The translations under genes and the position numbers were made by a program. Below the pieces are notes generated by a model that saw only the letters and a program-made list of their open reading frames with translations, did not search any database and was not told the origin of the DNA. A stretch of DNA of 64,000 bases from Ascidiella aspersa (Eukaryota), in NCBI GenBank assembly GCA_963924565.1, contig OZ004613.1:6696001-6760000 (forward strand). Reading direction: 5' to 3'. Positions 698 through 51,831 of the stretch are shown piece after piece. Position 1 is the stretch's first letter. Each line of letters opens with the position of its first letter.

Positions 698-1465
698 CTA
701 ATAACCGCCAGTTACACAAAGTTCTGCCCCATTGACGTAAGGGCTTTCATCGCTTGCCAGGAACAAACAAGCATTAGCAACTTCGACAGGCCTTCCACAG
801 CGACCCAATGGAACAATTTTCTTAAAACCATCAATGGTCTTACTGTCAGCCAAGTGAAGCATAGGCGTTTCGATTGCGCCTGGTAAGACAACATTGCACC
901 TGACACCGAACCTTCCCACCTCAATGCACGTCGCTTTTGTGAAAGCAATTATCCCGGCTTTAGAAGCAGCGTACGACGAACAATTTCCCATTCCCTTGAC
1001 TCCCATAATGCTGGCGACGTTAACTACACTTGCTTCTGACACATCCTTGTTTTCGCCAAGCTCAAGTCGCAAAAGAAACTCCTTTGTAAAATTAAAAACG
1101 CCAATCAGGTTGACGTCCAATACGTGACTGAATGAAGCCAGGGTTGTTTCGACGATCGGAGACATGTGTATAACACCGGCATTGTTTACCAGGACATTGC
1201 AATCCTGTCCAAATTGGTTACTAACAGCAGTAAAAGCCTCAGACGCTGAATTCTCTTTGGCCACGTCGCATTGAATCATCGCCACTTTGCTTCGATATTT
1301 AGCACTAAACTTTTCGTAGGCATATTTAAGAGTTTCTTGGTTGTAATCCACCATCATGACTTTGGCACCTTCGGCCAAAAAGCGTTCGCAAATAGCTTCC
1401 CCGATGCCCCCTGCTGCTCCAGTGACAATGGCCACTTTACCGTTTAACCTACCAACTTGCGCCAT
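698..1465 (-). CDS. HSD17B8-like: Classical SDR, HSD17B8/FabG-like (SDR-1), 255 aa, intronless, NAD-type (Asp40)
   Basis: [12 protein letters not shown], catalytic N-S-YAASK, RCN..PG and LFLASDES motifs. The true ATG (MAQVGR) is at 1465; the ORF track starts at an upstream non-ATG codon. Confidence 0.9.
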   Translation of the reverse strand: MAQVGRLNGKVAIVTGAAGGIGEAICERFLAEGAKVMMVDYNQETLKYAYEKFSAKYRSKVAMIQCDVAKENSASEAFTAVSNQFGQDCNVLVNNAGVIHMSPIVETTLASFSHVLDVNLIGVFNFTKEFLLRLELGENKDVSEASVVNVASIMGVKGMGNCSSYAASKAGIIAFTKATCIEVGRFGVRCNVVLPGAIETPMLHLADSKTIDGFKKIVPLGRCGRPVEVANACLFLASDESPYVNGAELCVTGGY

Positions 1466-2350
1466 TTTGAAACACAAAGGTTATTCACAAAACAAATATT
1501 ATAACACGATGTGCACTGTGCAGTTATATAGAAAACAGAAAGCATTTTTTTCTAAATTGTAAGGAAAATAAACTATACTAAAATACCTTGGCCTGGCTAA
1601 AAGCTTCCTTCAATGCTTTTAGTCCTATCTTTCTGCACTGTGATATTTAGTTGCGCAACCGACCACATTTTATATTTCCTTCCATTCATAGGTCGTCTAA
1701 ATCGCCAATTTTGTTGTTTTATAAACGTTTAATAACAACTCGGACACGGTCTTATTTTATTTGTTAATTGTATTAATACCGAAAACCCTGGTGTATGTAA
1801 AAGAGGATGTCGATAGTATAGAGTAATGTCCTTTAGTATTTAATCTCAAGGCGTATGTTATATGCCAGGTGGTGGTATTATCTTTCGAAAAAAGGATGGT
1901 ACAGCCGCATGCTGGTATTTTCATTTGATTAGGTTTTCTAACCCAACTCGGATTTTTCACTTTAAAAGATAGATTTCTCCAAGCTAAAAAGTTAGTATTC
2001 TAAGGATTCTAAGATTACTAAACCTAAGGCACAGTTGGCAAAACAACTTTAAAACGTTACTCTTGCATGTTTCAATTTATTGGCTTTGCTTACAAATTCG
2101 ACTGTGGTAATAACGACATTTGGTACCGAATCTGACTACCGCAATTTTTTGCCTAAATATTTTGAGTTTGCATTGAAAAAGGTAGCAACAAACCATATTA
2201 AGGGCATAATTTCATGTTACATTCAAATATTAAGATACGATATTGCAGCATAATAATTCTACAAAACAATTATTAGCGGTTTATTGTATTCACAATACAA
2301 AACATAAATCACAACGCAGTCTTAGAAGGACAGCGAAATTTTTTTCAAGC

Positions 2351-3118
2351 CTAATAACCGCCAGTTACACAAAGTTCTGCCCCATTAACGTAAGAGCTTT
2401 CATCGCTTGCCATGAACAAACAAGCATTAGCAACTTCGACAGGCCTTCCACAGCGACCTAGTGGAACCATTTGCTTAAAACCTTCAATGGTTTTACTGTC
2501 AACCAATTGAAGCATAGGCGTTTCGATTGGGCCCGGCATTACAGCATTGCACCTGACACCAAACCTTCCCACCTCAATGCACGTCGTCTTTGTGAAAACA
2601 ATCACTCCGGCTTTAGAAGCAGCGTAAGCAGCGCAATTTTCCATTCCCTTGACTCCCATAACGCTGGCTACGTTGACGATACTTGCCGTGCTGACATCAT
2701 TGCTTTTTCCCAGTTCAAGTCGCAAAAGAAACTCCTTTGTAAAATTGAAGACCCCAGTTAGGTTGACGTCCAATACTTGGTTAAAAGAAGCCGTGGTTGT
2801 TTCGACGATCGGAGAGACAGGCATTACAGCGGCATTATTGACCAGAATATCGCAATTCTGTCCAAATTGGTTCTTTGCAGCAACAATAACCTCAGACGCT
2901 GAATTCTGTTTGGCGACGTCGCACTGAATCATCGCTACTTTGCTATGATATTTAGCGCTAAACTTTTCGTAGACATTTTTGAGATTTTCTTCACTCCAGT
3001 CCACCATCATAACTTTGGCACCTTCGGCCAGAAAGCGTTCGCAAATAGCTTCCCCGATGCCCCCTGCGGCTCCAGTGACAATCGCCACTTTACCGTTCAA
3101 CCTACCAACTTGCGACAT
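2351..3118 (-). CDS. HSD17B8-like: Classical SDR, HSD17B8/FabG-like (SDR-2), 255 aa, NAD-type (Asp40)
   Basis: Complete motif set; ATG (MSQVGR) at 3118; closest paralog of SDR-1. Confidence 0.9.
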   Translation of the reverse strand: MSQVGRLNGKVAIVTGAAGGIGEAICERFLAEGAKVMMVDWSEENLKNVYEKFSAKYHSKVAMIQCDVAKQNSASEVIVAAKNQFGQNCDILVNNAAVMPVSPIVETTTASFNQVLDVNLTGVFNFTKEFLLRLELGKSNDVSTASIVNVASVMGVKGMENCAAYAASKAGVIVFTKTTCIEVGRFGVRCNAVMPGPIETPMLQLVDSKTIEGFKQMVPLGRCGRPVEVANACLFMASDESSYVNGAELCVTGGY

Positions 3119-4613
3119 TTTAAAAACGTGAAACACAAAACCTTAATCACAAAAGAAATATCAAAACACAACATTCAATTATTTAGAGAGCCAAAAGCAA
3201 CATCATTATTTCTAAATTTTGAGGTAATGAACTACACTTTAATGTCTTGGCTTGTCTAGCAGCTTCCTTAAACGCTTTTAGTCCAAACATTATAATATTT
3301 TTTTTTGCAGACTGCAATGTTGCATGTTTTATGTTAATTGTATCTGTTAAATGACACACTATTAAGCTAAACACCCTGATTTATGTAAAACATGATTTGC
3401 AATGCATTAATAGCGTAAAATCAAGATGCACACCAGAGCATACAAAACATTCTGATGCCCTTTCTGCCATGACTTAAAAATGAACCCATTGAATGAAGTA
3501 CACTGCACATATTGCAGAGTGTATTTGACCTTCGCAAGTTTGCATCGGCACCACTATTGACGCGATACGTGGAAAGCAAAAGTAAAAGCGCTAAACGAGC
3601 GCTGCTAAAAAAATATTGGCCACAAGGTTTTTTCATTTAGCTACATATCTACAATACTTCAATTTTGGTTGTTTTTACAAATGCTATTTCCTTTTAAACA
3701 TTGTAGCTTATTTTGCAACACATTTGTCAATAAGCCTCTCTGCATGGGCGACCATTTACTAAGCAACTGTTAAAAAGCGGTACAAAACCAAACAATACCG
3801 ATTGATTTCGTTACAGCGAATTGGGTTTTTTTTTGGATGTTATAGAATTGATCGCTTAACTTTGGGGGCGTTAAGAAGTAAGAAATCATGACCCAATTTA
3901 GTATTTTTTTGTCAGTCGTACTTTTAAGGTCCAAGCCACCATAAAAGCTTCGATCAGCTAAATTAAAAAAATAAAAATCTTAACGACCCTAATGAGCGTG
4001 TTGGCTGACTATACATGACATATTTTACACGCGTCAAGAAAAAATGGCGGAAAGCAGTGAAGTTTAATCCATGCTAATCGTGAACTCTCAGGCACCAACT
4101 ATCTGATTTTTTGTGATTCAATATTAATTTAGGGCGATTTATCTAATTTTGTAATCACATCTCCTAAGGAAACTCTATATGCAGTTTTTCCGGCTAGTAG
4201 AAAGTGGCGTTTGATTAGCGAAGATTGTAAAAGTCTGTCTATGCTGGATCAGCAGAATGCAAAGCCCATCGAAAGTGGTAAAAGTTTTAAAACAGCTATG
4301 CCCTATAAAGTTCTGGCAACGCCGAGTTTTTCGTCTGTCATGCAATGAACATGTGATGTTGAACTTTGGCGGTTTCAATGCTGTTGGTAATCATTAACAT
4401 ACGGCTACCGAATTGGGAGTGAACTATGAGGCCATATGACGTATGGAATATGTGCAATGAGTCAGCCGTTCGCCATTACAAGGCTTGGGAGTATAGGACA
4501 TTGATGATTGATTCCCGTGTAAAGATGAGATCTAAAACATACACTTGGCTATTAAAAACGCGCTGTGTGTTGGGAAACTTAGGAGTCAGGACTTGATTAT
4601 GAATGATTTAACA

Positions 4614-4903
4614 CAGTGGTTGTCAAACTTTTTGGCTTGCGGCACACTATAAAAATCTTTAATATTTCGCGCCACACTTTAAACAGAACAACAATAAAAT
4701 GATTTTAGAATCGACATTTACACAAGCCAAACTATATGTAAATGTCTCAATATTATTAACTTCTAATAATTTGTGTGTTAAGTCTAAAATATTTGTGTGT
4801 ATGCCTATTGGTAATCGCGTAATAATACCCTTTTTTCCAAAATTGCAAAAATTTTCACGGCACACTTGACGATTCTTTGAGGCACACAGTTTGGGAATCA
4901 CTA
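4614..4903. mobile_element. Degenerate non-autonomous hAT-type MITE
   Basis: Ends cagtggttgtcaaact / agtttgggaatcacta, internal (g)cggcacac motifs; flanks atttaaca/atttggta match only partly. Confidence 0.5.
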
Positions 4904-5208
4904 ATTTGGTATGTGTCAACATGTAGCCTCGCTATGTCTTACACTAGACAATCACGATTCTGCTTGTCATGCATTTGCTTTACACATGTCATTCGAGGTT
5001 TTGCCCTGCTACGAACCACAGCAATGAATTCGCGCTCTGTTTGGTAAAATTTCGCTCTATTTACAGTTATCTTAAATGTTTATTTAGGGACAGCTTTGGT
5101 TCTTTCAAAATTATAAGTCGAACTTAAACTGACGGTGTGTTGATAGATTTTTAGCAAAGTCTTAGTTCGTTTTTTTTTTACGACAAGTTTCTGTATTTCA
5201 GATCTAAA

Positions 5209-5961
5209 ATGGCGTTACAGGGTAAATTAGCGATTGTCCATGGAGCCGCAGGGGGCATCGGGAAAGCTACTTGCGAACGCTTTCTGGCCGAAGGCGCAAA
5301 AGTTATGTTGGTGGATTTGAATCCGAAAAGTCTCAAAGATACCTACGAGAAATTGAGTGCAAAACATCAAGGTAAAGTGGCGATGTTTGAATGCGACATA
5401 ACCGTAGAAAATTCGGCTTCCGAAGCTTTTTCAAGTGCGCAGTCCCAGTTAGGACAGAAATGCAGCATTCTGGTCAACTGCGCTGGTATGTTTGACTTCG
5501 ATCACAGAAACAACCCTGGCTTTATTCAATGAAGTAGTGGCCGTCAACCTGAATGCCATCTTCCTTTTCACGAAGGAGTTCCTTCGGCGCCTTGAGCTTG
5601 GAGAGAACAACAACGGAGATGGAGCAAGTATCATAAACCTCGCAAGTATAGCGGCAAAGGATTCAAATATAACGCAAGCTACGCCCCTGCTAAAGCCGGG
5701 GTGATCGCTTTCACGAAGACGACGCACATGGAGGTGGGAAAGTACGGTGTCAGGTGCAATGCTCTTGCGCCCGGTTTGATTTACACCACGATTCTACGCA
5801 ATGTAGACGAGGATTTGCTTGAATAATTAAAGAAAATGGTTCTGATAGGGCGTAAGGGAAAACCCGCCGAAGTTGCTAATGCTTGTTTGTTCCTGGCAAG
5901 CGATGAAAGCTCTTACTTTAATGGAGCTGTACTTCAAATATCTGGTGGTTTACCCGCGTGA
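5209..5961 (+). pseudogene. SDR pseudogene (SDR-3p), full length, Asp40 type
   Basis: Homology moves from frame 1 to frame 2 (~5491) and back to frame 1 (~5658). In-frame TAA at 5824-5826, YAPAK variant motif, normal end SGGLPA-TGA at 5961. Confidence 0.9.
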
Positions 5962-6512
5962 ATGTTTCGTTGATCTAAAGCAGTTTTTGTTGATTAAATC
6001 AGTCGCTACCACCATAATTGTATCGTTGTAATTATACCTCGCTCAGCAATACTGCTGGTCAATTATGCTGTGTTTAAATACTTCCGTTCACTTAACTAAC
6101 CATTTATCTACAATAATGTTTATTAATGGAAATTTATCTGTGCTCGGCCCCCTGTTCGTTTGGTAATATAAACAACAGTTACAAATAATAAAGCGTTTTG
6201 GTTGAAGTGGTGACCCTTTTTGGTATACAATAGGCACCATATTTTAAGCCAAGACAAGCCATTGAAAAAACAACATTCAAGTTTAATTCTATTGACTTAA
6301 TTCATTACAATACTACCATATCCATGCTTAAGGAGCAAAACGCACAATGTCAGAAACAGCTTAGTTTGAGATTGTGTGATAATCCTACGTTACATTGGTG
6401 TGTAGTTTTAAATGACGAACAGCAAAAAGCTAGAACACGATGACAATTGCGCATAGATTTTTCTGATATATATATATTTAGGCTTTAAAAGTAATACTTT
6501 TTGTGATCACAA

Positions 6513-6914
6513 CAGGGCTGCGGAGTCGGTTAAAAATACCCAGAGTCGGACTCCCGAGTCCTACTCCGGCCAAAACAATAAATCCGAGTCCGTATCCCGA
6601 GTCCCGAGTCCGACTCCGGTCAAATGTGGGATTTTTTAGAGTCCCAAGTCCGACTCTGAATTTACAGCATGTATTGCGCCAATCTTGGCGAATATTCAGC
6701 CATCCACTTATAGGGGTATCGTATATTTCATTCACTCACAATACAAGGTTGGAAAATGTTCCACCATATGCTATTCCACGTTTACAATTTCCAGTTGGCG
6801 GTCATATCAGTCTTGGAACTTGGTACTTCGCATGCGCATGTCGGACTCGGGACTCGGGTTGTTTTACGTGGTCTTACTCGAGTCCCAAGTTTGGACTCCG
6901 ACTCCACAGCTCTG
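6513..6914. mobile_element. Non-autonomous TIR element (cagggctgcggagtcgg family)
   Basis: TIR cagggctgcggagtcgg / ccgactccacagctctg with gagtcc/gactcc subterminal repeats. Same family as 62489-63611; absent from the paralogous region at ~18950. Confidence 0.8.
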
Positions 6915-8688: not shown

Positions 8689-9462
8689 ATGGCGCAAGTT
8701 GGTCGGTTAGACGGTAAAGTGGCGATTGTTACTGGAGCCGCAGGGGGCATCGGGGAAGCTATTTGCGAACGTTTTCTGGCCGAAGGTTGCAAAGTTATGA
8801 TGGTGGGTCGCAATTATGAAAACCTGAAATCTGTCTACGATAAACTCAATGTTAAATATAAAAACCACGTGGCGATGATTCAATGCGATGTATCAGAAGA
8901 GAATTCGGCGTCACAGGTATTTGCAGCTGCTAGCAACCAATTTGGTGAGAATTGCAATGTTCTGGTAAACAATGCCGGTGTTGTACACGTTTCTCCGATC
9001 GTCGAAACAACACTGGCTTCATTCAATCAGGTATTGGACGTCAACCTGATTGGCGTCTTCAATTTTACAAAGGAGTTTCTTCAGCGACTTGAGCTGGGAA
9101 AGAACAAAGATGACCGCAGGGAAAGTATCGTCAACATTTCCAGTGTATTTGGAAGATATGGTTCACATGGTTTCTCCTCTTACGCTGCTTCTAAAGCTGG
9201 AGTTACTGCTTTTACAAAGACGACGTGTCTTGAGGTTGGCAGGTTTGGAGTAAGGTGCAATGCTGTATCGCCATCTACAACCGATACCCCAATGCTGAAT
9301 ATTCTTGACAGCGAAGCACTTGACGCCATCCAAGCAATGATTCCGATGGGTCGCCTTGGAAAGCCGATCGAAGTTGCTAATGCTTGTTTGTTCCTGGCAA
9401 GCGATGAAAGCTCTTACATCAATGGAGCGATCTTAGAAATATCTGGTGGTTTTATGGCGTAA
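8689..9462 (+). CDS. HSD17B8-like: Classical SDR, HSD17B8/FabG-like (SDR-4), 257 aa, NADP-type (Gly40-Arg41)
   Basis: Intact ORF with all motifs; preceded by acceptor-like tcttgatttag|gttcaaaATG. Confidence 0.92.
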   Translation: MAQVGRLDGKVAIVTGAAGGIGEAICERFLAEGCKVMMVGRNYENLKSVYDKLNVKYKNHVAMIQCDVSEENSASQVFAAASNQFGENCNVLVNNAGVVHVSPIVETTLASFNQVLDVNLIGVFNFTKEFLQRLELGKNKDDRRESIVNISSVFGRYGSHGFSSYAASKAGVTAFTKTTCLEVGRFGVRCNAVSPSTTDTPMLNILDSEALDAIQAMIPMGRLGKPIEVANACLFLASDESSYINGAILEISGGFMA

Positions 9463-13585: not shown

Positions 13586-14367
13586 ATGACACAAGTTGGA
13601 AGATTAAACGGTAAAGCGTGCGTTGTCACTGCGGAGCTGCAGGGGGCATCGGGGAAGGTATTTGCGAACGCTTTTTGGCCGAAAGTTGCAAAGTTTTGAT
13701 GGTGGATTTGAATGCTGAAACTCTCAAAGATGCCTACGAGAAGTTGAATGCCAAATATCAAGGCATAGTTGGGATGATTCAATGCGATGTAGCTGAAGAG
13801 CATTCTGTGTCAGAGGTTTTTCTATTGCACATCCTCAGTTTGGACAGAAATGCATGCAACGTTTTAATAAATAATGCCGGATGTCTAACTTTGTCTCCTA
13901 TTGTCGAAAGAACCAAAGTTTCATTTAAACAGGTTTTGGACACCAACCTGATTGGCGTCTTCAATTTTACAAAAGAGTTTCTTTTGCAACTTTATCTCAG
14001 TGAAAACAAGGATGCAACAGGGGCAAGTATCGTTAACCTTGCCAGCATAGCTGCACTGCAAGGATATGCAGATGCTTCGGCCTACGCTGCTTCTAAAGGT
14101 GGAGTGGTAGCCTTTACGAAGACGACATGCATTGAGGTGGGAAGGTTCGGTGTCAGGTGCAATGCAATAGCGCCGGGTCCAATTGATACTGCATTGCTAC
14201 ACAAGGCATGTGACAGTACAGTTCTTGATGCAATCAGGAAAATGATTCCGTTGCGTCGCATAAGAAAGCCAGTCGAAGTTGCCGATGCTTGTTTGTTTCT
14301 GGCAAGCGATGAAAGCTCTTACGTCAGTGGGGCGGTCTTACAAATATCTGGTGGTTATGCAGCGTGA
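13586..14367 (+). pseudogene. SDR probable pseudogene (SDR-5p), Asp40 type
   Basis: ATG at 13586 (MTQVGRLNGK); a 2-nt insertion at 13631-13632 shifts the frame in the TGxxxGxG motif. A -1 lesion (T-run 13817-13821) and a +4 lesion (tgca duplication 13851-13858) compensate each other; the remainder is open with YAASK. Confidence 0.85.
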
Positions 14368-17472: not shown

Positions 17473-17510
17473 ATGTCGCAAGTTGGCATCGGGGAAGCTA
17501 TTTGCGAACG
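17473..17510 (+). pseudogene. SDR 5' fragment (SDR-6f)
   Basis: [13 protein letters not shown] with a 45-nt internal deletion; homology ends at 17510. Confidence 0.85.
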
Positions 17511-18137
17511 TATATATTGTACTCATGTCACTTATAATCTTTTCTAAACGCCCAATTTTCATTGCATGTTATGATATGCAAACAGTAGGCCTATATGCGA
17601 AAAACACTACAGCTGGTCTGACTGGAAAGTTGCTTAAACTCGCACATTTGACGGTTAAATAACTATTTTAAAACGAAAATAAATGTGGCATGTTTAAAAG
17701 CACCTCTAGGCAACAAAGACAAAGGTAACATGCAAGGGCAGCGACATTTGAATGACACGATTCTAGAAACGTGCACGCCGTGCGATGTTTTGACCAAAAT
17801 AATCCTCGTTTTTTTGCTGCATAGCTTTGACTGCCGGCACGCAATGCACAGCTGTTTTAAACGGTCTTCATTCAAGTCTAGTCTCAAAAAGTTTGTTTAG
17901 AAAATGTGATCAGTCGAAACGAGTTTTAGCACTTTAAGTTGTCAACAGGAAGTGGAAACTTTATTATACACGATATGTTGTGAAATACATTCACTCGAGA
18001 CTGCGGTGAGGGACTGCAAGTATAAGCCAAAGTCCGAATAATGGCTAGTCAATAGTTTCGTCTATTCATCTTTTGGGGTAACTTTTGTGCTTCTGGCAAA
18101 CTTGTCGGCAATATGCTTCTGTTTTTTTAGACTTAGA

Positions 18138-18201
18138 ATAGCTTAAGTTGGTAGGCTAAATGGTAAACTGGCTATTGTCACTGGAGCCGCAGGGGGCATC
18201 G
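18138..18201 (+). pseudogene. SDR 5' fragment (SDR-7f)
   Basis: ATG>ATA and CAA>TAA, then [18 protein letters not shown]; truncated before a poly-T run. Confidence 0.85.
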
Positions 18202-19510: not shown

Positions 19511-20284
19511 ATGGCGCAAGTTGGTAGGTTAAACGGTAAAGTGGCCATTGTTACTGGAGCCGCAGGGGGCATCGGGGAAGCTATTTGCGAACGCTTTCTG
19601 ACCGAAGGTGCCAAAGTCATGATGGTGGATTTGAATGCTAAAAGTCTTGATAATAAGTACGAGAAATTTGGTGCCAAATATAAAGGCAAAGTGACGAAGT
19701 ATCAATGCGATGTAACTAAAGAAAGTTCTGCCTCTGAGGCTTTTGAGAAATCCGTCTTTGAATTCGGTCAGAATTGCAACGTTCTAGTCAACTGCGCCGG
19801 CATTGCACCTATGTCTTCGATCGTCGAAACAACCCTGGCTTCATTCAATCAGGTATTGGACGTGAACCTAAATAGCGTCTTCATCTTTACAAGAGAATTC
19901 TTAAGGCGACTTGAGCTTTGTGAGAACAAGGATTCAACAGGAGCAAGTATCGTTAACATCTCCAGCATTTCGGCTAAATTGGGATTTTTAGATCACGCAA
20001 GCTACGCTGCCTCTAAAGCTGGAGTGGTGGCCTTTACAAAGACGACGTGCATTGAGGCGGGAAGGTTCGGTGTCAGGTGCAATGCACTCACACCCTCATG
20101 GATCGAAACTCCGCTTCTACAAGATGCTGACCCTGCGATGATTGAAGGATCCATTCCTTTCATTCCATTGGGTCGCATTGGAAAACCCGTCGAAGTTGCT
20201 AACGCTTGTTTGTTTCTGGCAAGCGATGAAAGCTCTTACATCAATGGGGCTATACTTCAAGTATCCGGTGGCGCGATGCCTTAA
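19511..20284 (+). CDS. HSD17B8-like: Classical SDR, HSD17B8/FabG-like (SDR-8), 257 aa, NAD-type (Asp40)
   Basis: Intact motifs; ttgtatttcag|gttgataATG at 19511. Confidence 0.92.
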   Translation: MAQVGRLNGKVAIVTGAAGGIGEAICERFLTEGAKVMMVDLNAKSLDNKYEKFGAKYKGKVTKYQCDVTKESSASEAFEKSVFEFGQNCNVLVNCAGIAPMSSIVETTLASFNQVLDVNLNSVFIFTREFLRRLELCENKDSTGASIVNISSISAKLGFLDHASYAASKAGVVAFTKTTCIEAGRFGVRCNALTPSWIETPLLQDADPAMIEGSIPFIPLGRIGKPVEVANACLFLASDESSYINGAILQVSGGAMP

Positions 20285-20286
20285 AG

Positions 20287-21825: not shown

Positions 21826-22662
21826 TCATGCAAATAAACCACCAGATATTTGGAGTGTCGCTCCATTAACGTAAGAGCTTTCATCGCTTGCCAGGAACAA
21901 ACAAGCATTAGCAACTTCAATCGGCTTTCCAAGGCGCCTCATTGGAATCATCGCCTTTAACGTCTCAAACTTAGCAACTTCTACTTGCTTTCCAAAGCGC
22001 CCCATCGGTATCAATGGCCTGACGGCTTCAAGCTTCACCGGGTCAAAATTGTTTTGGATCAGAGTATCAATTACACCTGGCGTGACAGCATTGCACCTGA
22101 CACCGAACTTTCCTACTTCAATGCAAGTTGTCTTTGTGAAAGCATTCAAGCCGGCTTTAGAAGCAGCGTAGCTGGCATGATCTTCCACTCCGACCTGCCC
22201 AGCTAAACTGGACACATTCACGATACTTGCGCCTGTTGCATCCTTGTTCTTACCAAGCTCTAGTCGCCGAAGAAACTCCTTCGTGAAAGTGAAGACGCCG
22301 AATAGATTGGTGCTTAAGACCTCGTTGAAAGAAGCCAGGCTTGTTTGAACGATTGGAGACAAAGGCGCAACACCAGCGCAGTTTACCAAAACGTTGCAAT
22401 TTTGTCCGAACTGAGAAAGTGTCATTGAAAAAGACTCAGACGCGGATTTTTCCTCAGTTACATCACATTGAACCATGGCGACATTTTCCTTATATGTGAC
22501 ACTAAGCTTGTCGTAGACAGATTGCAGGTTTTCTAAATTCCGACCCACCATCATGACATTGGCACCTTCGGCCAGAAAGCGTTCGCAAATAGCTTCCCCG
22601 ATGCCCCCTGCGGCTCCAGTGACAATCGCCACTTTACCGTTTAACCTACCAACTTCCGACAT
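21826..22662 (-). CDS. HSD17B8-like: Classical SDR (SDR-9), 278 aa including a 21-aa paralog-derived insertion, NADP-type
   Basis: ATG (MSEVGR) at 22662; all motifs present; in-frame 63-nt insertion at 21910-21972. Confidence 0.85.
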   Translation of the reverse strand: MSEVGRLNGKVAIVTGAAGGIGEAICERFLAEGANVMMVGRNLENLQSVYDKLSVTYKENVAMVQCDVTEEKSASESFSMTLSQFGQNCNVLVNCAGVAPLSPIVQTSLASFNEVLSTNLFGVFTFTKEFLRRLELGKNKDATGASIVNVSSLAGQVGVEDHASYAASKAGLNAFTKTTCIEVGKFGVRCNAVTPGVIDTLIQNNFDPVKLEAVRPLIPMGRFGKQVEVAKFETLKAMIPMRRLGKPIEVANACLFLASDESSYVNGATLQISGGLFA

Positions 22663-25124: not shown

Positions 25125-25778
25125 ATGTCGCAAGTTGGCAGGTTACTCGGTAAAGTGGCGATTGTTACTGGAGCCGCAGGGGGCATCGGGGAAGCTATTT
25201 GCGAACGCTTTCTGGCCGAAGGTGCTAAAGTTATGATGGTGGGTCGGAATTTAGAAAACCTGCAATCTGTCTACGAAAAACTTAATGTCATATATAAGGA
25301 AAACGTCGCAATGGTTCAAGGCGATGTAACTCAGGAGAAATCCGCGTCTGAGTCTTTTTCAATCACACTTTCTAAGTTCGGTCAAAATTGTAACGTTTTG
25401 GTAAACTGCGCTGGTGTTGCGCCTTTGTCTCCAGGCGCAAGTATCGTGAATGTGTCCAGTTTAGCTGGGCAGGTCGGAGTGGAAGATCATGCCAGCTACG
25501 CTGCTTCTAAAGCCGGCTTGAATGCTTTCACAAAGACAACTTGCATTGAAGTAGGAAAGTTCGGTGTCAGGTGCAATGCTGTCACGCCAGGTGTAATTGA
25601 TACTCTGATCCAAAACAATTTTGACCCGGTGAAGCTTGAAGCCTTCAAGCAAATGATTCCAATGGGTCGCTTTGGAAAGCAAGTAGAAGTTGCTAATGCT
25701 TGTTTGTTCCTTGCAAGCGATGAAAGCTCTTACATTAATGGAGCGACGCTCCAAATATCTGGTGGTTTATTTGCATAA
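25125..25778 (+). CDS. SDR-10, inverted twin of SDR-9 with an in-frame 120-nt deletion (217 aa; probably catalytically impaired or a pseudogene)
   Basis: ATG at 25125; the junction cca|ggc at 25433/25434 removes IVQTSLAS...KNKDAT (40 aa). The 3' flank 25779-26070 is the reverse complement of ~21505-21825. Confidence 0.7.
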   Translation: MSQVGRLLGKVAIVTGAAGGIGEAICERFLAEGAKVMMVGRNLENLQSVYEKLNVIYKENVAMVQGDVTQEKSASESFSITLSKFGQNCNVLVNCAGVAPLSPGASIVNVSSLAGQVGVEDHASYAASKAGLNAFTKTTCIEVGKFGVRCNAVTPGVIDTLIQNNFDPVKLEAFKQMIPMGRFGKQVEVANACLFLASDESSYINGATLQISGGLFA

Positions 25779-26479
25779 AATATTCCCAGGTGAAATAATT
25801 TTTCACGGTTGGTTTTCTTCAATGATGTCGATAATCCACATTTATAATATCTCAACATGTTTGTAATGAGTTGGTTTACACCAGTAAAGGCGTTGCGTCA
25901 GCAAGATAAACAGTCGCGAGCTTGTATCATTAAAATGGTTAAATGTTGTGTATAATTATGTGTTTTCGAGCTTTGTTATTGTCAAATATGTTTTTAACTT
26001 CTCCGATTTTTGTTCAAAGTTTTGTGTCATTGTGCATTCTTAGTCATATTTTACTGGAAAACATATCTTTTGTATCGTAATCCAACAAGCATTACTTGTA
26101 GATAAAAAAAATTACCATGTATAACTTTATTTGAGTATTAACCATGCAACTAAATTCATTAATAAATGCCCTTTATTGTGTAAACCATAACATAAAGCGT
26201 ATGTTTCTATGTAACAGGACACGCTACCCGTGCTTTATTAGTATTTTCCTTATTAATGACATTCCTTGTAGTAAAAGCCGTAGACCAGATTTGGAAAACT
26301 GGATTTCTTTTAGCGTTTTCAATAAGATTAGAATTAAAATTAGAGCATTTCAATTTTCCAAATTAGATTAGAATTAGAATTAGATCATTTTGAGTTTATA
26401 ATTATAGAACTACTAAATTGTTAAAAAAACGAATTTTAACTAAAATATGAACTGGAATTACATTTGATTGTTCACAACC

Positions 26480-26645
26480 AATTTAATTTGAGATTCTTCA
26501 TTTTTCGGCCCGTCAGCCGACTTCGACCCACCATCATGACTTTGGCACCTTCGGCCAGAAAGCGTTCGCAAATAGCTTCCCCGATGCCCCCTGCGGCTCC
26601 AGTGACAATGGCCACTTTACCCTGTAACCGACCAAATTGTTCCAT
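26480..26645 (-). pseudogene. SDR 5' fragment (SDR-11f), Gly-Arg type
   Basis: [41 protein letters not shown], then decays. Its upstream region (26646-27330) is an inverted homolog of the SDR-14/15/16 promoter. Confidence 0.88.
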
Positions 26646-28145: not shown

Positions 28146-28427
28146 ATGTCGCAAGTTGGTAGGTTAAACGGTAAAGTGGCCATTGTCACTGGAGCCGCAG
28201 GGGGCATCGGGGAAGCTATTTGCGAACGCTTTCTGGCCGAAGGTGCCAAAGTAATGATGGTGGACTGGAATCTTGAAAAACTTAATAACACTTACAAAAA
28301 ACTGTTTGCCAAATATCAGAGCAAAATAGCAATGTTTCAATGCGATGTGTCGGATGAGAATGCAGCGAATGAAGCGCTTTCAAAAACGCACTCTCAGTTT
28401 GGAGAACACTGCAATGTTCTAGTAAAT
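28146..28427 (+). pseudogene. SDR 5' half (SDR-12f) interrupted by a hAT transposon, Asp40 type
   Basis: 94 clean codons up to NVLVN, then the TIR cagggttgtccaaact begins at 28428; the 3' half is not found. Confidence 0.9.
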
Positions 28428-28776
28428 CAGGGTTGTCCAAACTTTATGGGACGCGGGACGCATTCGGCAAGGAAATTAGATCGCGGGCCGCAGTTGACAT
28501 TTTTCCTCTTATACACTGTCTCACCGTACCAGATGTAAAGTAAAACACGTACATGTGTAAATGAATCTTCATATTTATCATAAAAACATATTGGGGAATA
28601 GATTAAAGAAGCTAAGATGTGAATACTACGAATAAGAGAGTTTTGGAAATTTTGAACAACGTCAGTAGACCAGGAAACCTTAAAAATAACTGACAAGTAT
28701 GAATAAGAATAAACCATAAATTTATTCGTAAAAAATATTCAAGGAAGTACGTAAAACGGTACAGTTTACTTAAAAT

Positions 28777-32326: not shown

Positions 32327-33100
32327 ATGGCGCAAGTTGGTAGGTTAAACGGTAAAGTGACCGTTGTCACTGGAGCCGCAGGGGGCATCGGGGAAGCTAT
32401 TTGCGAACGCTTTCTGGCCGAAGGTGCCAACGTAATGATGGTGGATTGCCATTTGGAAAATCTCAAAGTTGTTCATGGAAAATTGAATGCCAGTTATGAA
32501 GGTAAAGTGGCGATGATTCGATGCGACGTAACGGAAGAGAATTCGGCTTGTGAGGCGTTCACGGCTGCAAACGAGCAGTTCAAGCAGAATTGTAACGTTT
32601 TGGTTAACTGCGCTGGTATTCCGGGCATGTCTCCAATTGTCGAAGCAAGCCTGGCTTTCTTCAATAAGGTATTAAGCGTCAACCTTAAGGGCGCCTTCAC
32701 TTTCACGAGAGAGTTCTTACGGCGACTTGAGCTTGGAGAGAAGAAGGATACGACAGGTGCCAGTATAGTTAACATCGCCAGCATTGCAGCCAATACAGGA
32801 TTTGAAAATTTATCTGCCTACGGTGCTTCTAAAGCTGGACTGGTCGCTTTCACAAAGACGACGTGCATTGAGGTGGGAAAATACGGTGTCAGGTGCAATG
32901 CGCTAACGCCAGGTGCAATTGACACAGCTTTCATAAGCGATACCCAAAAGGAACAGTTTGAGACGTTAAAGGCGATGATTCCAATGAGGCGCCTTGGAAA
33001 GCCGATTGAAGTTGCTAATGCTTGTTTGTTCCTGGCAAGCGATGAAAGCTCTTACATTAATGGGGCAACACTTCAAGTATCTGGTGGTTCTATGGCGTGA
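32327..33100 (+). CDS. HSD17B8-like: Classical SDR, HSD17B8/FabG-like (SDR-13), 257 aa, NAD-type (Asp40)
   Basis: Intact, YGASK; gttttgcag|ttttataATG. Confidence 0.92.
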   Translation: MAQVGRLNGKVTVVTGAAGGIGEAICERFLAEGANVMMVDCHLENLKVVHGKLNASYEGKVAMIRCDVTEENSACEAFTAANEQFKQNCNVLVNCAGIPGMSPIVEASLAFFNKVLSVNLKGAFTFTREFLRRLELGEKKDTTGASIVNIASIAANTGFENLSAYGASKAGLVAFTKTTCIEVGKYGVRCNALTPGAIDTAFISDTQKEQFETLKAMIPMRRLGKPIEVANACLFLASDESSYINGATLQVSGGSMA

Positions 33101-35786: not shown

Positions 35787-36560
35787 ATGGCACCATTAGG
35801 TAGATTACAAGGTAAAGTGGCGATTGTCACTGGAGCCGCAGGGGGCATCGGGGAAGCTATTTGCGAACGTTTTTTGGCCGAAGATGCCAAAGTCATGATG
35901 CTGGGTCGGAATGAAGAAAATCTCAAAAATGTTTACGAAAAGTTAGTTGCGAAGTACAAAGAAAATGTGGCCATGATTCAATGTGACGTAGCTGAAGAGA
36001 ATTCGGCTTGTGAGGCTTTTACTGCTGTAAGCAAGCAATTCGGAGGGAATTGTAACGTTTTGGTTAACTGCGCTGGTATTCCCGGCATGTCTCCAATCGT
36101 CGAAACAAGCCTGGATTCATTCAATAAGGTATTAAGCGTCAACCTTAAAGGCGCCTTCACTTTCACGAGAGAGTTCTTACGGCGACTTGAGCTTGCTGAG
36201 AACAAGGATTCAACAGGAGCAAGCATAGTTAACATCTCCAGCATTGCAGCCAATACAGGATTTGAAAATTTATCTGCCTACGGTGCTTCTAAAGCTGGAC
36301 TGGTCGCTTTCACAAAGACGACGTGCATTGAGGTGGGAAAATACGGTGTCAGGTGCAATGCGCTAACGCCAGGTGTAATTGACACAGCTTTCATAAGCGA
36401 TACCCAAAAGGAACAGTTTGAGACGTTAAAGGCGATGATTCCAATGAGGCGCATTGGAAAGCCGATTGAAGTTGCTAATGCTTGTTTGTTCCTGGCAAGC
36501 GATGAAAGCTCCTACATTAATGGGGCAACACTTCAAGTATCTGGTGGTTCTATGGCGTGA
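35787..36560 (+). CDS. HSD17B8-like: Classical SDR (SDR-14), 257 aa, hybrid of an SDR-16-like N-terminus and an SDR-13-like C-terminus, NADP-type
   Basis: Intact ORF from MAPLGR; see findings for the mosaic structure. Confidence 0.9.
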   Translation: MAPLGRLQGKVAIVTGAAGGIGEAICERFLAEDAKVMMLGRNEENLKNVYEKLVAKYKENVAMIQCDVAEENSACEAFTAVSKQFGGNCNVLVNCAGIPGMSPIVETSLDSFNKVLSVNLKGAFTFTREFLRRLELAENKDSTGASIVNISSIAANTGFENLSAYGASKAGLVAFTKTTCIEVGKYGVRCNALTPGVIDTAFISDTQKEQFETLKAMIPMRRIGKPIEVANACLFLASDESSYINGATLQVSGGSMA

Positions 36561-41633: not shown

Positions 41634-42407
41634 ATGGCACCATTAGGTAGATTACAAGGTAAAGTGGCCATTGTCACTGGAGCCGCAGGGGGCATCGGGG
41701 AAGCTATTTGCGAACGTTTTTTGGCCGAAGATGCCAAAGTCATGATGCTGGGTCGGAATGAAGAAAATCTCAAAAATGTTTACGAAAAGTTAGTTGCGAA
41801 GTACAAAGAAAACGTGGCCATGATTCAATGTGACGTAGCTGAAGAGAATTCGGCTTGTGAGGCTTTTACTGCTGTAAGCAAGCAATTCGGAGGGAATTGT
41901 AACGTTTTGGTTAACTGCGCTGGTATTCCCGGCATGTCTCCAATCGTCGAAACAAGCCTGGATTCATTCAATAAGGTATTAAGCGTCAACCTTAAAGGCG
42001 CCTTCACTTTCACGAGAGAGTTCTTACGGCGACTTGAGCTTGCTGAGAACAAGGATTCAACAGGAGCAAGTATAGTTAACATCTCCAGCATTGCAGCCAA
42101 TACAGGATTTGAAAATTTATCTGCCTACGGTGCTTCTAAAGCTGGACTGGTCGCTTTCACAAAGACGACGTGCATTGAGGTGGGAAAATACGGTGTCAGG
42201 TGCAATGCGCTAACGCCAGGTGTAATTGACACAGCTTTCATAAGCGATACCCAAAAGGAACAGTTTGAGACGTTAAAGGCGATGATTCCAATGAGGCGCA
42301 TTGGAAAGCCGATTGAAGTTGCTAATGCTTGTTTGTTCCTGGCAAGCGATGAAAGCTCCTACATTAATGGGGCAACACTTCAAGTATCTGGTGGTTCTAT
42401 GGCGTGA
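41634..42407 (+). CDS. HSD17B8-like: Classical SDR (SDR-15), protein identical to SDR-14
   Basis: Identical translation with a few synonymous differences (gcg/gcc, aat/aac, agc/agt). Confidence 0.88.
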   Translation: MAPLGRLQGKVAIVTGAAGGIGEAICERFLAEDAKVMMLGRNEENLKNVYEKLVAKYKENVAMIQCDVAEENSACEAFTAVSKQFGGNCNVLVNCAGIPGMSPIVETSLDSFNKVLSVNLKGAFTFTREFLRRLELAENKDSTGASIVNISSIAANTGFENLSAYGASKAGLVAFTKTTCIEVGKYGVRCNALTPGVIDTAFISDTQKEQFETLKAMIPMRRIGKPIEVANACLFLASDESSYINGATLQVSGGSMA

Positions 42408-46275: not shown

Positions 46276-47052
46276 ATGGCACCATTAGGTAGATTACAAG
46301 GTAAAGTGGCCATTGTCACTGGAGCCGCAGGGGGCATCGGGGAAGCTATTTGCGAACGTTTTTTGGCCGAAGATGCCAAAGTCATGATGCTGGGTCGGAA
46401 TGAAGAAAATCTCAAAAATGTTTACGAAAAGTTAGTTGCGAAGTACAAAGAAAATGTGGCCATGATTCGATGCGATGTAGCTGAAGAGAATTCGGCTTGT
46501 GAGGTCTTTACTGCTGTTAAAAAGCAATTCGGACAGAATTGCAATGTTCTGGTTAATAATGCTGCTGTCTTGTCAGTGTCGTCGATCGTTGACACAACCA
46601 TGGATTCATTCAACCAAGCATTGGACGTCAACCTGAACGGCGTCTTTATCTATACAAAGGAATTTCTCAAGCGGCTCAAACTTACCGAGGGTCAAAATGC
46701 AGCAGGCGCAAACATCGTTAACGTCACCAGCATGGCGGGTAGGCTGGGATTCAAAGATTGCTCTGCCTACTCTGCTTCTAAAGGTGGAGTGGATGCTTTC
46801 ACAAAGACGACATGCATTGAGGTGGCAAGGTTCGGTGTCAGGTGCAATGGGGTTTCGCCCTGTGTTATTGATACTCCATTGCTACACCGCTCGTTTAACA
46901 AAGCCTATATCGATGCTGTCAAGCCAATGATTCCGATGGGGCGCTTTGGAAAGCCGGTAGAAGTTGCTAATGCTTGTTTGTTCCTGGCAAGCGATGAAAG
47001 CTCTTACATCGATGGAGCGATCTTAGAAATATCTGGTGGTTTTATGGCCTAA
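46276..47052 (+). CDS. HSD17B8-like: Classical SDR, HSD17B8/FabG-like (SDR-16), 258 aa, NADP-type
   Basis: Intact, YSASK; the first 64 residues are identical to SDR-14/15 and the C-terminal two thirds are distinct. Confidence 0.92.
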   Translation: MAPLGRLQGKVAIVTGAAGGIGEAICERFLAEDAKVMMLGRNEENLKNVYEKLVAKYKENVAMIRCDVAEENSACEVFTAVKKQFGQNCNVLVNNAAVLSVSSIVDTTMDSFNQALDVNLNGVFIYTKEFLKRLKLTEGQNAAGANIVNVTSMAGRLGFKDCSAYSASKGGVDAFTKTTCIEVARFGVRCNGVSPCVIDTPLLHRSFNKAYIDAVKPMIPMGRFGKPVEVANACLFLASDESSYIDGAILEISGGFMA

Positions 47053-48575: not shown

Positions 48576-48700
48576 ATGGCGAAACTTGGTAGATTACACG
48601 GAATTGGGAAAGCTATTTGCGAACGTATTCTAGACGAAGGTTTCAAAGTCATGATGATGAATTTGAATAAAAAAATTTTGGAGGTGTTTTCGAAAAACAT
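48576..48700 (+). pseudogene. Old SDR 5' fragment (SDR-17f)
   Basis: tgtgtttcag|gtttaaaATG, MAKLGRLH-GIGKAICERILDEGFKVMM with a 33-nt deletion; end approximate. Confidence 0.8.
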
Positions 48701-48756
48701 AACAAATCACTTTTGCAAGAGAGTTTCACAGAATTTTTAACACATATGTGTGTGCA

Positions 48757-50431: not shown

Positions 50432-50635
50432 TCAGGGTCGTAATGACTTAAGTCGATGACTTGAATTAAGTGCACTTAGGTTACTGTTTTCGAATGGCTT
50501 TACGTTTAGTCGTTTACCCAATTTTAATATCTTGAATTTAAAGACTAGAATTGCTCGTATTATGACTTTACTGGGACTTGACTTGTTATTTATTCAAAAT
50601 GACTTGACTTGGACTTAAGTCATTTCAAAATGAAT
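50432..50635. repeat. Dispersed gacttgactt/aagtcaagtc-rich element (related copies at ~18500-18770, 33243-33395, 36700-36855 and 42550-42700)
   Basis: Clustered aagtc pentamers and cagtgttgt-like ends; probably a TIR-element family. Confidence 0.5.
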
Positions 50636-51057
50636 AGTTAAAAGTAATCGTTTTCGACTCGTTTTTCTCGTCGCCAACGAGTAATTCGACAGGTTCAACA
50701 GCCATACTTCGTAACCATAGTTATATTAAGTCTAAATATGACGTAATTTTTTAGCAATTTCTCGATTTTTGTTTAGATCGGTAATCGATTTTCCAGGGTA
50801 AATTTGTCAAAAGTTTTAAGGGTAGCCGCAATATATTACTAACCGACACTATAGCTTTGTATTTTGGAAAAACTTAACTGATACGTTAGATTAAAAAAAG
50901 GAAAGAAACCATTTGATGTTGGGTTTAAGTGAAAGATTAACTTTATTTTACGTGGTAGTAAAAGTCACGTTCGGAACAACCCCTAGCGTATTGTAATAAA
51001 CTATTCCGGCGTATAAAAGCATACAGCGCTGTCTGTCAACATTCCTTTGTGAAAACG

Positions 51058-51831
51058 TCACCTCATTAAACCGCCAGATATGTCAAGGATGGCACCGTTT
51101 ATGTAAGAGCTTTCATCGCTCGCCAGGAACAAACAAGCATTAGCAACTTCGGCCGGCTTACCGAAGCGCCTCATTGGAATATGTGGCTTTGCTTTATCAG
51201 GAAATGCACGGCCGTAGGGACTCAGCATTGTAGTGTCGATTAAACCTGGGGTGGCTGCATTGCACCTGACACCGAACTTTCCCACCTCAATGCACGTCGT
51301 TTTCGTTAAGGCATTTACACCAGCTTTGGAAGCAGCGTAGGACGAACCTTTTAGCAATCCAACATTTCCCGCTAAGCTTGAAACATTAACGATACTTGCT
51401 CCAGCTGCATCCTTGTTTTTACCAAGCTCAAGTCTCTGAAGAAACTCCCTTGTATAAGTGAAGGCGCCAAACAGATTGATGCCTATGACATGATTAAAAG
51501 AAGCCAGGGTTGTGTCGACGATCGGCGATAAAGGTAGGACACCTGCATTGTTTACTAGAACATTGCATTTCTGACCGAATCGGTTGCTAATAGCACTAAA
51601 AGCCTCACGCGCGGAACTCTCTTTAGATACGTCGGATTGAATCATCGCCACGTTGCCTTTAAATGTTTCACTGAGTTTTTTGAAGGCAGAATTTAGATTT
51701 TCTTGATTCCGACCCACCATCATTACTTTGGAACCTTCGGCCAGAAAGCGTTCGCAAATAGCTTCCCCGATGCCCCCTGCGGCTCCAGTGACAATAGCCA
51801 CTTTACCTTTTAACCTACCAACTTGCGCCAT
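51058..51831 (-). CDS. HSD17B8-like: Classical SDR, HSD17B8/FabG-like (SDR-18), 257 aa, NADP-type
   Basis: Intact motifs; ATG (MAQVGR) at 51831. Confidence 0.92.
   Translation of the reverse strand: MAQVGRLKGKVAIVTGAAGGIGEAICERFLAEGSKVMMVGRNQENLNSAFKKLSETFKGNVAMIQSDVSKESSAREAFSAISNRFGQKCNVLVNNAGVLPLSPIVDTTLASFNHVIGINLFGAFTYTREFLQRLELGKNKDAAGASIVNVSSLAGNVGLLKGSSYAASKAGVNALTKTTCIEVGKFGVRCNAATPGLIDTTMLSPYGRAFPDKAKPHIPMRRFGKPAEVANACLFLASDESSYINGAILDISGGLMR

Follow-up and report, generated by a model that had tools for sequence, protein, structure and literature searches.

Gene content and transcription of the array

The window analysed here, a 64,000-nucleotide stretch of the Ascidiella aspersa genome (contig OZ004613.1), harbors 18 SDR loci on both strands: ten full open reading frames (ORFs), one internally deleted ORF, two frameshifted pseudogenes and five fragments. 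A locus-by-locus recount gave the same numbers as an earlier note on this DNA, and all loop sequences quoted there were located in the window. The array as a whole is, however, larger than the 18 loci of that note. It extends 96 kb upstream of the window (about 35 loci, 17 full ORFs), and no more copies were found in the 20 kb past the window on the side of 51058..51831. Broken loci make up about half of the array, which is flanked by NACHT-domain genes and other repeated genes.

In the following, NAD- and NADP-type refer to the motif at residues 40-41, with residues numbered after the copy at 8689..9462. Two full ORFs of 255 amino acids, 698..1465 (− strand; Asp40-Tyr41) and 2351..3118 (−; Asp-Trp), are both NAD-type by motif and form tandem twin units (82% over 1.6 kb). 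The pseudogene at 5209..5958 (+) carries a 5-base and a 1-base deletion and shows 90% identity to an intact copy that lies upstream of the window. It is followed by the full ORF 8689..9462 (+; 257 amino acids; NADP-type by motif, Gly40-Arg41) and by a second pseudogene at 13586..14367 (+), with a frameshift near codon 16 and more indels near codons 79-99. A tiny, internally deleted 5' fragment (17473..17511, +) was recognised by nhmmer (E 3e-5) and sequence inspection, and a further 5' fragment (18140..18201, +) comprises codons 1-21 with a stop inside. The ORF at 19511..20284 (+; NAD-type by motif, Asp-Leu) encodes 257 amino acids from the aligned ATG, and a further ATG lies upstream at 19487. 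At 21826..22662 (−; 278 amino acids; NADP-type by motif) a full ORF contains a 21-codon duplication after the lid, the added part of which resembles the 32327 type. The deleted ORF at 25125..25778 (+; NADP-type by motif) is 94% identical to it and has lost 40 codons in frame, including the catalytic Asn. Two 5' fragments, 26471..26644 (−; codons 1-56; Gly-Arg type) and 28146..28429 (+; codons 1-95; Asp type), precede the full ORF 32327..33100 (+; NAD-type by motif, Asp-Cys), the hybrid ORF 35787..36560 (+; Gly-Arg), its twin 41634..42407 (+; three silent differences) and the full ORF 46276..47052 (+; 258 amino acids; NADP-type by motif). A decayed 5' fragment lies at 48577..48698 (+), and 51058..51831 (−; 257 amino acids; NADP-type by motif) is the last copy of the array on that side. 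The copies were previously described as intronless, and they are indeed single-exon, but this is nothing special here, since HSD17B10, DHRS4-like and other genes of this genome are also single open frames.

Transcription was assessed with one raw RNA run, chosen by species label, whose depth covers four of the ten full ORFs and the two pseudogenes. Sense RNA was present on all four covered intact genes and almost absent from both pseudogenes. The highest depth was observed at 2351..3118 (9.6 sense versus 0.09 antisense), followed by 8689..9462 (sense, 2.3-6.7), while 698..1465 (sense, 0.4-1.1) and 19511..20284 (sense, 0.7-1.1) reached a depth near 1 only. The pseudogenes at 5209 and 13586 gave depths of 0 (bin 5069-5735) and 0-0.11, respectively. 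Expression, which the earlier note wanted checked, is thus confirmed for these four covered copies, two of them at low level. The coverage of run X3 resembles that of an RNA assembly, with genes covered and most spacers missing. In 13 of the 26 rows from this genome, a pyrimidine-rich stretch that ends in AG precedes the start by 6-10 bases. Concerning 5' splicing or trans-splicing, neither joints nor loose ends at the beginning of a gene were among those listed (15 of 233 joints).

Origin from a second ascidian HSD17B8 copy

The array proteins carry the sequence features of classical SDRs (TGxxxGxG, NxAG, Asn-Ser-Tyr-Lys). Among the 22 analysed ORFs, Asn119, Tyr165 and Lys169 are unchanged in all, and Ser152 (exception outside the window) and Thr15 are each present in 21. 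The folded model of the 8689 copy (pLDDT 95.8) is a one-domain Rossmann fold, and its nearest fold is human HSD17B8 (TM 0.91 to 4cqm; best matches 4cqm, 4cql and 2pd6). Bacterial FabG proteins were among the top matches, and therefore horizontal transfer from bacteria was considered. In a phylogeny with HSD17B8 and FabG, as proposed in the earlier note, the array forms one clade (100/100), which is nested in a second tunicate clade (100/99) within tunicate HSD17B8 and apart from bacterial FabG. A grouping of the array with FabG was rejected (p-AU 8.5e-5; tree without CBR4 sequences), and with it the transfer. The HSD17B8 ancestry claimed earlier is supported, both by tree position and by fold.

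However, the array copies are not HSD17B8 itself but derive from a second, older ascidian paralogue. The true HSD17B8 orthologue is a separate, intron-bearing multi-exon gene on another contig (C9) and is the sister of Phallusia HSD17B8 (100/97). HSD17B8 was duplicated in an ancestor common to Ciona and Phallusia, the single-exon second copy (the founder, G000:C7:6376243) gained new loop sequences that were kept between species, and the founder multiplied in this lineage to 23 full ORFs, itself included, with a roughly equal number of broken copies. Synteny of the founder with L041/L042 was considered and rejected: the 30 matches listed were all to SDRs, and the neighbours differ (SYS1 versus an F-box/ApaG gene). 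The pocket signature of HSD17B8 consists of T-R-D after NxAG, G-N-x-G-Q-x-N-Y, and P-G-F...M-T...V-P, and all three motifs are retained in the C9 gene. Asp101, Asn159, Gln162 and Pro207 occur in 123-124 of 124 canonical relatives and in none of the 23 array rows; since the canonical relatives were selected by the second motif, only the first and third motifs are independent in this comparison. HSD17B8 (17beta-HSD8, SDR30C) is the alpha subunit of the mitochondrial ketoacyl reductase that it forms with CBR4, a role described in the accessible text of a recent preprint (bioRxiv 10.64898/2026.07.13.738135). The array has its origin, fold and tetrad in common with this enzyme, and half of the copies retain its Asp40. 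Unlike HSD17B8, each copy consists of one exon and has no pocket signature, and the other half of the copies has Gly-Arg at residues 40-41.

HSD17B8 was earlier taken to be normally a single-copy gene, which is only partly right. In amphioxus, 107 SDR-Rdh/Hsd genes including six Hsd17b8 genes are given in the available text of PMC3184775, Styela clava has at least six divergent HSD17B8 paralogues, and other ascidians already possess the second HSD17B8 clade. Styela and amphioxus expanded HSD17B8 independently, and the Styela set is parallel to the array. As in the array, SDR multiplication in amphioxus was independent, included HSD17B8 and occurred partly in linked groups (PMC3184775). The array is larger (23 full ORFs), lies in one 147-kb block and shows a two-state cofactor motif and hybrids, which the available part of the amphioxus account does not report. 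Likewise, the open-access main texts consulted describe neither this array nor any HSD17B8 of the NADP type, and information on loop or cofactor states may be contained in the amphioxus supplement.

Loops, cofactor motif and exchange between copies

In the 23 array ORFs, three segments, hereafter loops, share 35% identity as opposed to 72% elsewhere. This pattern is reversed in canonical HSD17B8 relatives (67% in loops versus 53% in non-loop positions, n=124), and the variable segments fall at the sites most conserved in HSD17B8 orthologues. Loop and non-loop identity are 63/63% in the founder and three orthologues and 38/66% in the six Styela paralogues. At the nucleotide level the difference is 0.48 in the three loops and 0.23 elsewhere. 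When the loop mask was moved in a circle, only one of 256 shifts reached the loop value. The loops are predicted to line the substrate pocket and to set the substrate, although the C-terminal pocket varies in most SDR families anyway, according to the part of PMC2792337 available to us. Hence, two statements of the earlier note need to be qualified. A constant scaffold and tetrad were described, and the tetrad is nearly invariant, but non-loop identity is only the 72% given above and falls to 54% at residues 44-60. Loops were said to differ in almost every copy, and they are the most divergent segments, but 32327, 35787 and 41634 have essentially identical loops, and thus the ten full ORFs give eight loop sets.

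Residues 40-41, the cofactor-selecting pair, constitute a fourth variable site that had been overlooked. Of 24 ORFs, 12 have Asp followed by Cys, Leu, Tyr or Trp and 12 have Gly-Arg, with no mixed state, and the two residues switched jointly on 3-4 branches. Gly-Arg is found in none of 143 relatives. The array Asp aligns with the Asp of human HSD17B8, and the array Gly-Arg aligns with the Gly-Arg at the end of strand 2 of NADPH-dependent (R)-specific alcohol dehydrogenases/ketoreductases of Lactobacillus. These enzymes, which reduce a broad range of carbonyls, are not close to the array (about 34-36% identity), and Gly-Arg arose independently in the latter. Following the rule for NAD/NADP choice in the available text of PMC2792337, Asp with a non-basic residue is predicted from the sequence to specify NAD use and Gly-Arg to specify NADP use.

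Exchange among copies was evident from a PHI-like test (p 0.002), mutually rejecting segment trees and long identical tracts in 13 of 231 pairs. Unequal crossing-over and conversion swap pieces between copies, and 35787 is a clean hybrid. Its 5' part and upstream flank come from the 46276 type, whereas its 3' part, all three loops and the downstream flank come from the 32327 type. The switch point lies near codons 70-89, informative sites are distributed 50:4 to the left and 10:138 to the right of the best break, and the flanks match the two parents at 99% and 91% identity. Both 35787 and 41634 lie in a 6-kb duplication (97.7% identity), and 41634 could be an uncollapsed allele of the hybrid rather than a duplicate.

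Two regions, the loops and the stretch directly following residue 40, have the highest silent as well as replacement differences, and silent and total divergence peak at the loops and in the 40-60 segment. Four-fold silent differences amount to 0.58 in loops and 0.36 elsewhere (p 0.0004), and silent diversity of the surface helix 44-60 is as high as in loops (0.60). At conserved codons, silent diversity was not significantly lower farther away from the loops (Spearman p 0.23). The low silent diversity of codons 1-39 recurs in part in comparisons with the founder and another species (0.40 and 0.52 versus 0.48-0.79), so that it is not all due to conversion. In human red/green opsins, divergence peaks under conversion are regarded as a mark of selection, at least in the accessible text of PMC3924837. 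There, as in the array, exchange between tandem copies makes the scaffold uniform, whereas segments of functional importance retain their old differences, also at silent sites. The array differs in having many copies where the opsins have two, each gene carries three or four islands, and the function of these islands is a predicted one.

An HSD17B10 array that arose independently in this genome shows the same design as the HSD17B8-derived array. Its copies show 0 of 388 silent differences over codons 31-70, yet at the three corresponding loops nucleotide identity is 51-56%, a value equalled by one of 255 shifts.

Selective forces and a putative carbonyl reductase repertoire

The earlier note proposed selection for many specificities and suggested recombination-aware site models of dN/dS. 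In our analysis (custom GY94 site-model code in which branch lengths were fixed apart from one common scale factor and empirical-Bayes posteriors involved no integration over parameters), purifying selection prevails overall (dN/dS 0.39). Ongoing diversifying selection on the pocket, as in a toxin arms race, seemed at first sight well supported: naive M2a placed 7% of sites at 2.7 (LRT 69.5), M8 versus M8a gave an LRT of 58, nine of 15 flagged sites fell in the 34 loop positions (p 1e-5), and an LRT of 10-20 was left when double hits alone were allowed. In addition, the loops of the four closest pairs contain 51 replacement versus 13 silent codon differences, although their dN/dS of 0.75 is not different from 1. 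This signal was, however, lost once synonymous-rate variation was modelled (LRT about 0, no class above 1). Simulated true selection kept an LRT of 48-78 under the same model (7/7 runs), and data simulated without selection produced naive LRTs of 85-192 in 12/12 runs. Positive selection was therefore rejected as the explanation of the naive signal, and an arms race is improbable; the array is a clear case of standard positive-selection tests giving a strong false signal. Even less probable is a ketoreductase set that tailors one secondary-metabolite or lipid pathway with free-standing PKS/FAS partners. The descent from a ketoacyl reductase and the NADP motif in half of the copies would suit such a role, but the ketoacyl-CoA residues of the pocket signature are missing from all array rows, and the high gene turnover would be ill-suited to a fixed pathway. 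Furthermore, none of 18 ketosynthase matches lies on the array's contig (C7), which speaks against a polyketide synthase link and leaves nothing in favour of the natural-product ketoreduction suggested earlier.

Relaxed constraint with drift is a more serious contender, which we nevertheless consider less probable than a functional repertoire. According to this explanation, unequal crossing-over in an unstable region makes the array grow and shrink, and nothing more is selected for than an SDR that folds and is active, or the number of genes. The loops would be drifting after release from the constraint of the former CoA substrate, and conversion would leave them out for the simple reason that they have already become too dissimilar. 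A loop dN/dS of 1.00 (CI 0.90-1.11) with shared dS, the missing class above 1 after silent-rate variation, the breakage of about half of the loci, the repeated genes on the flanks, NACHT-domain genes among them, and the high silent diversity of the surface helix all agree with drift. On the other hand, loop dN/dS decreases to 0.45-0.55 with its own dS (LRT 21-29), indicating that the loops are still constrained. The joint change of residues 40 and 41 without any mixed state, and the recurrence of the same three islands in the unrelated HSD17B10 array and in Styela, also argue against drift. The remaining pattern fits selection that preserves the old differences between loops in the face of conversion, but relaxed constraint can give it too.

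Taken together, the tandem array of second-copy HSD17B8 genes probably represents a small carbonyl reductase/dehydrogenase repertoire, in which the loops are predicted to determine the substrate and residues 40-41 the use of NAD or NADP. The original gene presumably keeps the mitochondrial fatty-acid role, and the copies would thereby have been freed. The loops might then stay different because exchanges that would replace a useful pocket are selected against, so that old differences would be maintained, with no arms race demonstrated. Copies with Gly-Arg would be reductases that use NADPH, and those with Asp would be NAD-linked. Candidate substrates are small lipophilic carbonyls and alcohols, potentially dietary or microbial compounds, quinones, or steroid- or lipid-like molecules.

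It is tempting to speculate, and we regard this as doubtful at present, that ascidians have more than once converted housekeeping SDRs of mitochondria, HSD17B8 and independently HSD17B10, into a combinatorial kit, with a two-state cofactor module at the front and old, guarded pocket modules that are re-paired by unequal crossing-over. If so, a single crossing-over step would suffice to change an enzyme linked to NAD into a reductase that uses NADPH, with the substrate unaltered. A natural example is the pair 32327/35787, in which the loops are the same and the cofactor motifs are opposite. Tandem SDR expansions and divergence islands under conversion are already known, and taken by itself the array does not represent a novel type of system. 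Of interest are the re-use of a conserved mitochondrial enzyme family at such a scale in a chordate, the NAD-to-NADP motif switch in half of the copies, the occurrence of the same design twice in one genome and again in Styela, and a natural hybrid in which cofactor choice and pocket shape are uncoupled by motif and which could be assayed with two proteins. If the substrates of the copies are distinct, the array would also provide a ready panel of animal ketoreductases. Vanabin matches in this genome led us to consider a link to vanadium chemistry, which the parallel expansion in Styela does not require.

Extent, transcription and ancestry of the array

The tandem HSD17B8-derived loci form a real, transcribed and recombining SDR array that stems from a second ascidian HSD17B8. 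Six-frame searches of window positions 698-51831 recovered all 18 loci counted in the earlier note: 10 full ORFs, one ORF lacking 40 codons, two pseudogenes with frameshifts (5209 and 13586, named like all loci by start position) and five fragments. Upstream of the window (C7:6696001-6760000 of the 308.6-Mb genome, G000) the array runs on to C7:6600406 through 17 further loci (seven full ORFs, six broken near-full copies, four fragments), so that 147 kb hold about 35 loci, 17 of them full ORFs. Outlying copies lie at C7:6.376-6.387 Mb (two full, two broken), at C7:9.00-9.04 Mb (two full, several fragments), on contig C3 (two full) and, as broken copies, on C1 and C6; the genome search, which scores best candidates only, gives at least 23 full ORFs genome-wide. 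Across 25 rows, paralogues have a median identity of 73% at the nucleotide and 66% at the residue level. Nested duplications occupy window 33473-45322, with a 6-kb block at 97.7% identity and a 1.3-kb spacer repeat present six times.

DNA runs X1 and X2, which may be the source of the assembly, bear out the stretch across all 30 bins of window 400-20399, spacers included. At window 13850, inside pseudogene 13586, both lack 4 bases that the assembly has, thus the lesions of this pseudogene differ between alleles. Window 400-20399, holding four of the ten full ORFs, was also analyzed with stranded RNA run X4 (about 6% of the run used; 1100 reads placed, mostly on repeats). Each of the four intact genes in this interval had first mates on the strand opposite to the coding one. 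Depth was 9.6 (2351), 2.3-6.7 (8689), 0.4-1.1 (698) and 0.7-1.1 (19511), and 0 and 0-0.11 in pseudogene bins; X4 stems from another animal and its reads were accepted from 93% likeness, so that very close unseen paralogues could add reads.

Bacterial FabG was among the top database matches of the array copies, and bacterial transfer therefore needed testing. In a 42-row tree with 10 of the 24 array ORFs, picked to span the types (a quick tree held all 24), the array formed one clade (support 100/100). It grouped at 98/97 with the founder, a single-exon copy, and founder relatives (Phallusia and two further records). This group nests in a second tunicate clade including Ciona sequences (100/99), itself within tunicate HSD17B8; Phallusia and Ciona supply the nearest named relatives. 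A tree constrained to join array and FabG was rejected (p-AU 8.5e-5), and with it a bacterial origin by transfer. The phylogeny against HSD17B8 and FabG that the earlier note had proposed thus upholds its HSD17B8-like assignment. Its view of HSD17B8 as normally single-copy needs qualification, as PMC3184775 describes six Hsd17b8 genes in amphioxus, and Styela clava has its own expansion of six named divergent rows.

The predicted structure of ORF 8689 (pLDDT 95.8) has human HSD17B8 as its best match. The array copies are, however, not functional HSD17B8: the true gene is a distinct one on C9, sister to Phallusia HSD17B8, with eight exons located, the first exon not among them. The founder (G000:C7:6376243-6377016) is an undescribed, conserved ascidian HSD17B8 paralogue. 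Its loops (G-G-x-S/D, G-K-x-G-M, P-G-F-I-E-T-P-x-L-D) are kept in Phallusia and two further records. An F-box/SMI1/ApaG gene begins about 260 bases past its end on the same strand, possibly as an operon. Since one founder orthologue in another genome is single-exon and the sole such copy in 9.6-14 kb, intron loss preceded expansion. Retroposition is a likely source of the single-exon copy, though other genes of this genome are single frames too.

Predicted pocket loops, selection and recombination

In SDR enzymes, the loops after strands 4, 5 and 6 line the pocket. The three segments singled out earlier (98-101, 153-164 and 196-213 in 8689 numbering) sit after these strands in the 8689 model and are predicted to line the substrate pocket. 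They are indeed the most variable parts of the array, with a mean identity of 35% vs 72% elsewhere among 23 ORFs (identical twin and founder excluded). PMC2792337 assigns the SDR substrate site to a variable C-terminal region. Loop and remaining identities were 67% and 53% in 124 canonical HSD17B8 relatives, 63% and 63% in the founder with three orthologues, and 38% and 66% in six Styela paralogues. The canonical set was chosen by its second-loop motif, and the independent contrast is that of loops 1 and 3 only, with 86% and 59% identity vs 26% and 36% in the array. Asp101, Asn159, Gln162 and Pro207, near-invariant in canonical HSD17B8, occur in 0/23 array rows.

Selection was analyzed in 22 ORFs (twin, deleted copy, founder and C1 copy excluded; included were a copy that lacks a start codon and another whose insertion columns were removed), with an overall dN/dS of 0.39. 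Naive models favored positive selection (M2a vs M1a: LRT 69.5, 7% of sites at 2.7; M8 vs M8a: LRT 58) and placed 9 of 15 flagged sites among the 34 loop positions, with two more at 41 and 43. Four-fold silent differences were likewise higher in loops than outside (0.58 vs 0.36, p 0.0004; 0.52 vs 0.33 with the next two bases identical), and reached 0.60 at codons 40-60 and 0.21 at 1-39. Adding site-wise rate variation gained about 180 log units in fit, and the LRT dropped to about 0; with double hits as the only addition, an LRT of 10-20 remained. Simulated rate variation without selection yielded naive LRTs of 85-192 in 12 of 12 cases, and simulated true selection gave 48-78 under the rate-variation model in 7 of 7. 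Selection for many specificities, as the earlier note had it, is therefore not supported as positive selection (dN/dS > 1). Loop dN/dS was 1.00 with shared dS and 0.55 with own dS; pairwise, it came to 0.45 across 10 disjoint pairs and to 0.75 across the 4 closest, with 0.28-0.36 in the rest of the gene. Thus, of the proposed site-model comparison, what stands is that loops evolve faster than the scaffold, not demonstrably above neutral.

Our best reading, held with moderate confidence, is a repertoire of carbonyl reductases/dehydrogenases that evolves by birth and death and falls into two predicted cofactor classes. Its chief rival, relaxed drift, is less probable; the data make an arms race unlikely. 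The array resembles known SDR expansions under conversion in how it works. Divergence peaks under gene conversion are a known pattern (PMC3924837), and the array's loop pattern fits it. However, the gradient of silent diversity around the loops was not significant (p 0.23) and the low variation of the 5' end is in part also seen in comparisons with outgroups, which both argue against a firm reading as conversion peaks. With two of its three window sizes a PHI-like test gave p 0.002, with the third 0.026, and trees from three gene segments were mutually rejected. Unusually long identical tracts occurred in 13 of 231 pairs, a count that may be inflated by low variation in codons 8-35, where several of them fall.

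Predicted cofactor classes and a hybrid gene

At the end of strand 2 (residues 40-41), 12 of 24 array ORFs carry Asp with Cys, Leu, Tyr or Trp after it, whereas the other 12 carry Gly-Arg; within the window, 4 ORFs are Asp-type and 7 Gly-Arg-type. The founder has Asp-Arg. Among 143 relatives, none has Gly-Arg and two have Gly with another residue. In alignments the array Asp falls on the Asp of human HSD17B8, and Gly-Arg, found in half of the array ORFs, on the Gly-Arg at the equivalent position of NADPH-dependent Lactobacillus ketoreductases. According to PMC2792337, NAD use follows from an acid at the end of strand 2, NADP use from a basic residue in the next loop. On this basis the array is predicted to comprise an NAD and an NADP class. 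On front-part trees that omit codons 40-41 the pair changed state 4 times (bootstrap range 2-5); on the back-part tree there were 5 changes.

ORF 35787, the clearest instance of recombination, joins a Gly-Arg front to the loops of an Asp-type gene. Ahead of codon 86-89 it agrees with 46276 at 50 of 54 informative sites, and past it with 32327 at 138 of 148; the flank upstream is 99% like 46276, the one downstream 91% like 32327. One unequal crossover would place the genes in the order seen: 32327, hybrid, 46276. The hybrid and its twin 41634 are 3 silent bases apart; the twin lies in the 6-kb block and may be an uncollapsed allele.

A second SDR array and neighboring sequences

A cleaner instance of the same design is found at G000:C2:38772670-38779658, where five tandem paralogues come after a canonical single-exon HSD17B10 (E 1e-103 against human HSD17B10). 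Their first 90 codons are nearly identical (0 silent differences in 388 comparisons at codons 31-70) and their pocket loops very different, with 51-56% nucleotide identity in blocks with the same three loops; 1 of 255 loop-mask shifts reached the observed contrast. A single cofactor residue pair is common to all five, and homogenisation passes through it, whereas identity in the HSD17B8 array falls from 84-93% to 66% just after codon 40. This contrast, a single comparison, is suggestive.

Further SDR genes at G000:C3:28717100-28772045 comprise four single-frame DHRS4-like genes (one at E 1e-85 to human DHRS4) and two membrane-anchored, HSD17B12-like ones, with a retroelement-like frame of 1509 codons between them. 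Bacterial-looking SDR genes (FabG-like and others) on small contigs C48, C18 and C67 are possibly contaminant or symbiont sequence. Two vanabin matches in the genome exceed the Pfam cut-off and, taken with Phallusia and Ciona as nearest named relatives, indicate a phlebobranch ascidian.

NACHT/NOD2-type winged-helix genes flank the array upstream (G000:C7:6578341-6592090 and 6398049-6399818; Pfam basis for L001:4279-6090). Minus-strand Cys-rich, Thr-rich exons with hydrophobic tails at window 54510-54926, 61439-61849 and 63721-64000 gave only a weak mucin match in Pfam and resemble Ly6-like GPI-anchored proteins. Two minus-strand frames at window 29646-30700, the longer without a match in Pfam or NCBIfam, resemble a broken hAT/GTF2IRD2-type transposase. 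The labels FBXO3, KDM2, HSD17B12, Ly6-like and hAT-like are our assumptions from domain content or sequence appearance, not database names. A 36-base tandem repeat (13.5 copies, 99% matches) at window 53122-53608 accounts for a spurious 158-aa ORF at 53140.
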